From positions 1 through 6,506 of the forward strand of contig NW_021829386.1 of NCBI RefSeq assembly GCF_006345805.1: a stretch of 6,506 bases of DNA, given 5' to 3'. The stretch is from Octopus sinensis (lineage: Eukaryota). How positions within the stretch are numbered: the first letter of the stretch is position 1; every line of letters starts with the position of its first letter. Under the pieces are notes generated by a model. It was not told the origin of the DNA. It did no database searches and worked only from the letters and a program-made list of their open reading frames with translations. Shown one piece after another: positions 3,054 to 4,901 of the stretch. Both the position numbers and the translations under genes were made by a program.

Positions 3054-3235
3054 GAGTATACTCTGTAAAGTGGTTGGTGTAATGAAGGGCATCGAGCCGT
3101 AGAGACCGAGCAAAACCAGACGCCTGGAGCCTGGTGCAACTCTGTGGCTTACCAGCTCCAGCCAAACCTTCCGATTCGTGCCAGCATGGAAAACCGACAA
3201 TGAGAAGGAGGAGGGGGAGGTGATGGAGGAAGATA
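3054..3235 (+). mobile_element. 5'-truncated SINE fragment (Ceph-SINE/RTE-tail-like)
   Basis: GC-richer block GAGTATACTCTGTAAAGTGGTTGG...GAAGGGCATC...GCCAGCATGGAAAA with a degenerate (GAN)n triplet tail. It resembles, from memory, an abundant octopus SINE 3' region. Confidence 0.6.
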
Positions 3236-3411: not shown

Positions 3412-3445
<34 letters not shown>

Positions 3446-3469
3446 AATATATATATATATATATACATA
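3236..3469. repeat. compound (CA)n then (TA)n microsatellite
   Basis: Imperfect CA repeats to 3410, then TA from 3411 to 3469. Confidence 0.95.
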
Positions 3470-3661
3470 TAGGGAGAGAATTCACAAAAAAAAACAAAAG
3501 ACGAAGACAGGTGGCGTAGACAACAAACAGATGTATTAGTATAACGCTCGGGAAGTGAAAAGTCTTTAACGTTTCGAGCCTACGCTCTTCCACAGAAAGG
3601 AACACAGAAAGAAACAAGGAGAGAAAATAAGAATGTGTAGTGGCTAGCAATCTATCATGGC

Positions 3662-3663
<2 letters not shown>
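3470..3663 (-). mobile_element. about 195 bp hammerhead-bearing element embedded in (TA)n
   Basis: Complex sequence sharply bounded by (TA)n on both sides and carrying a central hammerhead motif. It is a different family from the 2411/4762 repeats. Confidence 0.65.
3564..3599 (-). ncRNA. minimal type I hammerhead ribozyme motif (A6->U core variant)
   Basis: Minus strand: CUUU-CUGUGGA-A-GAGC(GUAG)GCUC-GAAA-CG-UU/-AAAG. Stem I CUUU/AAAG, 4-bp stem II, palindromic AACGUU stem III. Predicted cleavage at 3568/3567. Confidence 0.7.
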
Positions 3664-3719
<56 letters not shown>

Positions 3720-3726
3720 CCTTATA

Positions 3727-3767
<41 letters not shown>
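3664..3767. repeat. (TA)n microsatellite
   Basis: Two TA runs separated by a short GTATCCT interruption. Confidence 0.97.
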
Positions 3768-4454: not shown

Positions 4455-4629
4455 CAGGGGTCCTCAAATTTTTAGACCATTGAGGCTTCATGGACTCCTA
4501 GACTCCACGTCGACCCCCAGGCATGTACAAGAAAATAAATAAATAATAATAATAATTAAATAGATGTGCATTTATCAAGCTCTTGAATAGTCCCATCGTA
4601 CCCCAGAGTCTCCACTTCGGAGATCCCAG
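4455..4629. mobile_element. old hAT (Charlie-like) MITE, about 175 bp
   Basis: Left TIR CAGGGGTCCTCAAA (4455-4468). Degenerate right TIR TTCGGAGATCCCAG (4616-4629; 9/14 match to the reverse complement). The flanking 8-mers CTCTAGTC and TTCTTGTC (6/8) fit an 8-bp TSD with a TCTAG core. Confidence 0.55.
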
Positions 4630-4761
4630 TTCTTGTCCACTCAGCTGACATAAATTGTATGTATGTCTCCATACCTGTATCATCCAATAAATATTTCCTT
4701 GTTTCCAAAGGCATTTAGGTCTACCTCTTTTATCATCACACACAGCTTGTTTATATATATA

Positions 4762-4901
4762 AATTTTTTTTTCGTAATGAGATAAAAAAAAAGGTTGTGT
4801 AGATTTTAGAACATTTATTGATAGAAAGTCTTACAGCTGTTTCCAGGACGTTTATTATATCCTTTCATTGGAGACGGCGTGAGAAGATGGTTAAGAAATA
4901 G
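4762..4901 (-). mobile_element. hammerhead-bearing repeat, copy 2
   Basis: Direct repeat of 2411-2549, preceded by a short (TA)n at 4752-4761. It may extend to the (TA)n at about 5028. Confidence 0.7.
4828..4875 (-). ncRNA. type I hammerhead ribozyme motif (G5->A, probably inactive)
   Basis: Minus strand: GUCU-CCAAUGA-A-AGGAUAU(AAUAA)ACGUCCU-G-GAAA-CAGCUG-UA/-AGAC. Predicted cleavage at 4832/4831. Confidence 0.78.

Follow-up and report, generated by a model that had tools for sequence, protein, structure and literature searches.

The window, a stretch of 6,506 nt from Octopus sinensis (contig NW_021829386.1), is microsatellite-rich DNA of animal type and has no convincing gene. Among its 80 listed stop-to-stop frames, the 23 that lie outside or cross non-repeat DNA were scanned against Pfam. 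No match reached the cut-off (two fell far below it), and in these frames no RT or GIY-YIG gene is linked to the repeat described here. This repeat is a cassette of 192 bp (195 bp in the original prediction), which is enclosed by (TA)n arrays and carries a minimal hammerhead motif on the minus strand (Table 1). It occurs once in the window, and the contigs of the sequencing runs used below are too short to span it as a whole.

Table 1. Features of the cassette, its borders and its hammerhead motif (positions in the window)
Feature	Position	Strand	Remark
Copy of a high-copy repeat family, read as a 3' terminal repeat (pLTR) fragment of a Penelope-like element (PLE)	3472..3663	-	PLE identity putative
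Ends of the cassette, minus-strand sense	3' end ~3474-3476; 5' end 3663	-	3' end abuts (TA)n; 5' end a probable truncation
(TA)n array at the 3' end of the element	3412..3471	.	same junction type as the loose-end consensus in all three DNA-type runs
(TA)n array at the 5' side	3664..3767	.	specific to some copies
Minimal type I hammerhead motif, 36 nt	3564..3599	-	consensus of the compared PMC4209133 supplement rows except at position 6
Stem I, 5' arm	3596..3599	-	pairs with 3564-3567; no variant in the stem among the 40 of 133 listed
Core box CUGUGGA	3589..3595	-	C3 = 3595, U4, G5, position 6 = 3592 (U), N7 = 3591, G8, A9 = 3589
Extra unpaired A	3588	-	a typical trait of minimal hammerheads in PLEs
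Stem II, GAGC/GCUC, 4 bp	3576..3587	-	3587-3584 with 3579-3576; 4-nt loop GUAG
GAAA box	3575-3572	-	
Zero-loop palindrome ACGU	3572-3569	-	would pair as stem III with a further copy only
Position 17 (U)	3568	-	GUU cleavage triplet
Predicted cut	between 3568 and 3567	-	from hammerhead numbering
Stem I, 3' arm	3564..3567	-	

Several other features of the window were observed. A second repeat family with a hammerhead is represented on the minus strand by two decayed copies, at 2411-2545 and ~4757-4895, with a mean column identity of 88%. Each has its 3' end on (TA)n, a layout that is the same as that of the cassette. The copy at ~4757-4895 passes the descriptor at two core mismatches, a laxity at which 2 of 150 shuffles also match, and it has an 8-nt stem III palindrome. 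The cores of the two copies would fit a shared ancestor with a U4C change, followed by CpG decay. A (TATG)n array of 907 bp and 235 copies occupies 1113-2019, and its scattered indels may be sequencing noise. A short GC-richer stretch at ~4455-4660 gives the impression of what may be a small DNA-transposon remnant. A further GC-richer stretch (~3065-3205, plus strand) resembles the 3' terminus of an RTE-type SINE/LINE, an element that is common in octopus DNA.

The hammerhead motif

The motif is of the PLE kind. It was compared with the published consensus for minimal hammerheads (min-HHR; Cervera & de la Pena 2014, PMC4209133) on the basis of 44 alignment rows of the supplement. It agrees at every defined position except position 6 (A6 to U), including the extra base after A9, the G10.1-C11.1 pair, the palindromic 15.2/16.2 and the U-rich flanks. 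Stems I and II and the GAAA box are present, as are a palindromic 15.1-16.1 (ACGU) and an NUH cleavage triplet (GUU). The consensus core CUGANGA is not. Since the window has U at position 6, and A6 does not occur among the 40 of 133 family variants listed (see below), the motif is classified as a min-HHR variant and not as a member of the consensus. The GUU triplet was originally considered unusual. It is ordinary for PLE hammerheads, given that 12 of the 44 alignment rows end in the same ACGU followed by U17. The original prediction also held that a partner is needed for stem III, and this agrees with a minimal hammerhead that has the ACGU palindrome in place of a real stem III.

A descriptor that tolerates at most one core mismatch finds this motif as its single match in the window. 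The motif is not reproduced by shuffling, neither in 150 dinucleotide shuffles of the 4106 non-microsatellite bases nor in 5000 shuffles of the cassette (0 matches each). The 36-nt fold that had been proposed, with the strand unstated, is thus borne out by descriptor and shuffles and lies on the minus strand. Rfam yields no hammerhead match in the window, even at E-values up to 10. Rfam miRNA matches in the window were rejected as microsatellite artefacts.

The hammerhead shape is not the minimum-energy fold of the motif (-5.9 vs -7.2 kcal/mol). When the whole cassette is folded, the pair probability is 0.0 for stem I and 0.64 for stem II. The cassette does not fold better than its shuffles (z = +1.61), and folding z-scores lend no support. 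By nearest-neighbour energy, a mispaired dimer (-20.8 kcal/mol) is favoured by 11 kcal/mol over a dimer with a double hammerhead (-9.9 kcal/mol). The single genomic copy of the cassette is most likely inert.

The repeat family and its core

Copies of the repeat were read from public sequencing runs with one organism label each: RNA raw reads from X23 (about 6% of the data) and contigs from X3, X4 and X14. At least half of the cassette's words are contained in 15 of the 24 runs listed, under five organism labels; run X20 (an insect metagenome, share 0.14) was left out of the family counts. The alignments to the cassette comprise 2,472 reads from X23 and 20,707, 22,875 and 14,659 contigs from X3, X4 and X14, respectively, which points to a family of thousands of copies. 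The family motif is absent from prokaryote genomes and from viral contigs (0 matches in each).

Variation was evaluated on the 40 of 133 variants listed, which fall at 36 places. The smallest of them reaches about 12-13% in its best run, and as the variants appear to be ranked by share, this corresponds to a floor of about 12%. Within the motif, four places are variable among the variants listed: position 7, position 17, the first base of the stem II loop, and G12. Position 7 is the only one of the 36 places with three other letters (X3: 20/20/24%; X4: 25/18/26%; X14: 34/15/30%; RNA: 34/31/5%). Position 17 is either A or U, with A in 82, 64 and 62% of the DNA depth and in 43% of the RNA reads. 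GUA is therefore the cleavage triplet in 62-82% of the DNA depth, and GUU is the minority in the family. The palindrome AACGUU had been described correctly for the copy in the window. It is the minority form in the family because position 17 is mainly A, and most copies have the 4-nt ACGU. The first loop base is changed in 5-27%. A variant at 3600, just outside stem I, is found in 6-21% and adds a fifth pair.

No variant at position 6 or at any of the 16 stem bases occurs among the 40 of 133 listed in the four runs. One indel in stem II was encountered in 71 of 1961 RNA reads and in none of the DNA contigs. The stems are conserved by invariance: no compensatory change or covariation within the family is seen among the variants listed. 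Pair counting on alignment A2 is uninformative because the search pattern had fixed stem II. The depth of raw reads is highest over the motif (about 1970 at 3580-3587, compared to about 920 at 3532-3539 and about 450 at 3644-3651), in part because indels at 3557-3560 clip the alignments.

U6 is the state of the family, within the floor of about 12%, and not a decay of the copy in the window. It had been conjectured that U6 is fixed in the family, and neither of the two findings named as contrary to the prediction, unconserved stem pairing or a consensus with A6, appeared among the variants listed. According to the alternative, the window copy mutated from A6 to U while the family has A6. Such decay does occur: a U6 copy adjoins A6 copies of the same family in two metagenomic loci (L002 and L006; see below), which points to sporadic decay there, and the family evidence consists of 40 of 133 variants. 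For the cassette, this alternative is largely refuted and very improbable. About 1950 raw reads cover 3592, as do the three contig sets, and no A6 is found among the variants listed, while the neighbouring base and position 17 show large shares of other letters. In run X3, only five places have an A6-type change at 2% or more, and four of these are listed at places other than position 6.

The variation within the family is located where hammerheads tolerate change. Three of the four variable motif places listed are among the seven free positions of the motif (P = 0.018), and one of 29 constrained motif places is variable compared to 28 of 152 places outside the motif (one-sided Fisher P = 0.03); both values are modest, post hoc and based on 40 of 133 variants. 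This bears on a neutral explanation, in which the founder of the family lost A6, the ribozyme was dispensable, and the family multiplied anyway, with the conservation reflecting chance and recent amplification. The modest statistics are compatible with it, and Naiad PLEs are described as thriving without canonical hammerheads (PMC8557442). Besides, one of the letters at position 7 creates a CpG, so that part of the variation there may be decay, and G12, at a CpG, is altered in 2-4% of the DNA depth and in 18% of the RNA reads. We consider the neutral explanation unlikely, given the lineage-level changes that the flanks have accumulated at so many more places than the constrained part of the motif, and given that position 7 holds all four letters, at 15-42% each, in three DNA-type runs.

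Ends of the family and nature of the carrier

The ends were deduced from 24 of 890 loose ends, to which the following counts are confined. In all three contig sets, (TA)n precedes 3476 (82-124 contigs, agreement 0.49-0.57). At the other side, 235 RNA reads continue behind 3665 into sequence that is not TA, 190 RNA reads pass into (TA)n some ten bases behind 3630, and 174 RNA reads follow another sequence behind 3635, probably from one locus. Clean (TA)n borders had been claimed for both sides. The left one looks like the end of the family. The right one does not: reads there continue into different sequence or end sooner, and the border looks like a 5' truncation. We infer a fixed 3' end and a truncated 5' end from the loose ends listed, since the depth also drops at the left end, partly due to a variable A-run. 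A bias for microsatellites and this fixed-3'/5'-truncated pattern have been described for PLEs (PMC8557442), and the family conforms to it, with a 3' end at microsatellites and several continuations behind 3626-3665 among the loose ends listed.

The carrier is most likely a PLE terminal repeat, to judge from the ends and the type of hammerhead. The original prediction left the choice between a retrozyme monomer and a solo Penelope terminal repeat, and it is the latter that fits. A retrozyme would consist of head-to-tail tandem units. The window contains no tandem copy, and among the 15 of 29 joints listed in the main table there is no end-to-start joint in DNA or RNA and none with RNA support; joints that run backwards are few, each of them a single contig with different coordinates. 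A retrozyme is thus unsupported. The carrier could nevertheless be a monomer of a non-LTR retrozyme, or the 3' end of some other element with microsatellite targets, either a retroelement or a SINE. The size of 192 bp falls in the 170-400 nt range given for retrozymes (PMC7229834), solo monomers are reported to be common in retrozyme families (bioRxiv 10.64898/2026.07.22.740005), and no PLE ORF is linked to the repeat in the 23 of 80 frames scanned. We regard such a carrier as quite unlikely: apart from the joints, reads continue past 3665, and the hammerheads described for retrozymes are canonical ones with loop contacts, the minimal kind being assigned to the PLE type (PMC7229834).

The RNA reads show no pile-up of read starts or ends at the predicted cut or elsewhere. 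RNA depth on the cassette is equal in both orientations, and the library type may hide small circles. The RNA reads of the repeat fit read-through rather than a dedicated transcript.

U6 hammerheads elsewhere

A scan of metagenome contigs with a U6 pattern returned 13 loci, 11 of which are distinct (L001 equals L012, L009 equals L010). As they were selected by this pattern, they come with no A6 denominator. Eleven of the 13 pass the descriptor and have a stem I of 4-6 bp, which was not part of the search pattern, with differing sequences; L001/L012 fail at 16.1. Four loci (L007, L008, L009 and L011) have CUGUAGA in common, and L008, L009 and L011 also share stem II. The inverted partner of the hammerhead in L009, which was not selected by the pattern, has U6 as well. 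This suggests that the four loci may form a subfamily with U6, of which L004 contains a relative with A6. An unrelated minimal hammerhead with the same core as in the window, a 6-bp stem I and a GUC site is encoded on the minus strand of L005 (2454-2506), in AT-rich, eukaryote-looking DNA; by eye, none of the five frames listed for L005 resembles an RT.

The general U6 pattern has no match in viral contigs, and the A6 control has none there either. Its sole match in prokaryote genomes (L014) is without stem I and was read as chance. Two arrangements were also observed in the metagenome contigs. L006 has a tandem array at 45-271, with units of about 97 bp that each have a hammerhead motif (A6-U6-A6), a retrozyme-like layout. 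In L002 (2792-3100), L004 (692-1019), L009 and L013, hammerhead repeats form inverted pairs, as described for PLE insertions.

It is conceivable, although we put this forward only tentatively, that U6 has evolved repeatedly in animal PLEs and is under selection as a means of damping the hammerhead core. The ribozyme would be silent alone and switched on by the protein of the element or by Mn2+; U6 would be fixed in the cassette family and would recur in L005 and in the L007-L011 subfamily. If this were true, published hammerhead counts would miss whole high-copy families, as a U6 core is invisible to CUGANGA descriptors.

A proposed mechanism

We consider it about evenly balanced whether the cassette is, in all respects, a short and probably 5'-truncated insertion of a PLE-family terminal repeat into (TA)n, with a minimal hammerhead that has U6 as its family state and that is weakened and probably protein-assisted. 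The mechanism starts from a PLE-type minimal hammerhead whose U6, within the floor of about 12%, is common to lineages that carry different letters at positions 7 and 17 and in the loop. These lineages may have multiplied under selection for the hammerhead core and stems. The protein of the element would bind the RNA near its 3' end. At nicked (TA)n targets it would then start target-primed reverse transcription, from a point some 90 nt downstream of the ribozyme; in most cases this would terminate early and leave solo pieces such as the cassette. In the weakest step, the U6 ribozyme would be slow alone and would cleave only with two copies joined and with help from the protein. We propose that such slow, assisted cleavage would let full-length RNA survive as a template.

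Alternatively, in the same element, the U6 motif may no longer cut, the hammerhead-shaped fold being retained so that the protein of the element can bind or be positioned there. Changes in the CUGA turn led to low activity without rescue in deep mutagenesis (PMC9901934), and no cut ends are found in the RNA reads. Moreover, cleavage by the hammerhead of an Anolis PLE (PAc, see below) is dispensable in vitro, catalytic mutants showing no loss of insertion (PMC11167929). However, no cut ends were seen in RNA-seq for PAc either, although its hammerhead was shown to cleave (PMC11167929), and it is not obvious why a fold used purely for binding should retain C3, G5, G8, A9, A13, A14 and the NUH rule while freeing position 7. 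A fold that no longer cuts is, to our mind, rather doubtful.

The role of the hammerhead in PLEs is described as unclear (PMC8557442). The class of element is ordinary, being a very common kind of animal retroelement. A family with thousands of copies, in which one core base is changed while the rest of the core is kept and only tolerated positions are freed, is a natural test of whether hammerheads must cut. Either A6U cleaves in some setting, in which case the catalytic core is wider than known so far, or the family retains the fold for a role other than cutting.

Comparison with known systems

In the literature searched, neither a natural A6U family nor the hammerhead of this repeat was found in print; the data of Lunse 2017, Figs 5, S6 and S7 of Perreault, and supplement file 1 of Cervera could hold A6U. 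The portions of PMC11014351 consulted contain nothing on position 6, and the repeat annotation of O. vulgaris names Penelope-like families, without the word "ribozyme" (PMC13282606, excerpts).

The only natural position-6 variant found in that literature is the A6C hammerhead of phage Bcep176 (Perreault 2011, PMC3088659; Naghdi 2020, PMC7151607). It is slow but not dead in Mg2+ and performs better in Mn2+. In contrast to the cassette, which belongs to a high-copy animal family known from sequence, it has C instead of U, includes a real stem III, has measured activity and is a single motif in a phage.

Animal non-LTR retrozymes (PMC7229834; bioRxiv 10.64898/2026.07.22.740005) share with the cassette the small size, a type I hammerhead, the non-coding nature and the high copy number. 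They differ in that the cassette family shows no tandem arrays or circular joints among those listed and has a minimal instead of a canonical hammerhead. Short-stem-III hammerheads (Lunse, Weinberg & Breaker 2017, cited in PMC6765202) are, by their title, to which this comparison is confined, PLE-associated small variants that cleave as dimers.

The min-HHRs in the pLTRs of metazoan PLEs (PMC4209133) agree with the cassette in their type I layout and short stem I, in the additional base that follows A9 and in the G10.1-C11.1 pair. They likewise lack stem III but have a palindromic 15.2/16.2, use a GUU or GUA site, and mostly occur as single dispersed copies. The differences are A6 in all 44 rows compared versus U6 in the cassette family, a 4-bp stem II that is at the short end of their range, and the lack of an ORF linked to the cassette in the frames scanned. 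U3-A8 is named as a core covariant in min-HHRs (PMC4209133).

The Poseidon PLE of Anolis carolinensis (PAc; Frangieh 2024, PMC11167929) differs in that its ORF starts inside stem II, whereas the cassette has no ATG downstream in sense. Its hammerhead cleaves only with the PLE protein, a dependence shown for PAc alone. It resembles the cassette in having a hammerhead about 90 nt upstream of the insertion end and AT-rich targets, in addition to the lack of RNA-seq cut ends. By arithmetic from PMC11167929, the distance from the cut to the RT start in PAc is 85-92 nt, which compares, suggestively only, with the 92-94 nt from the predicted cut to the 3' end of the cassette.
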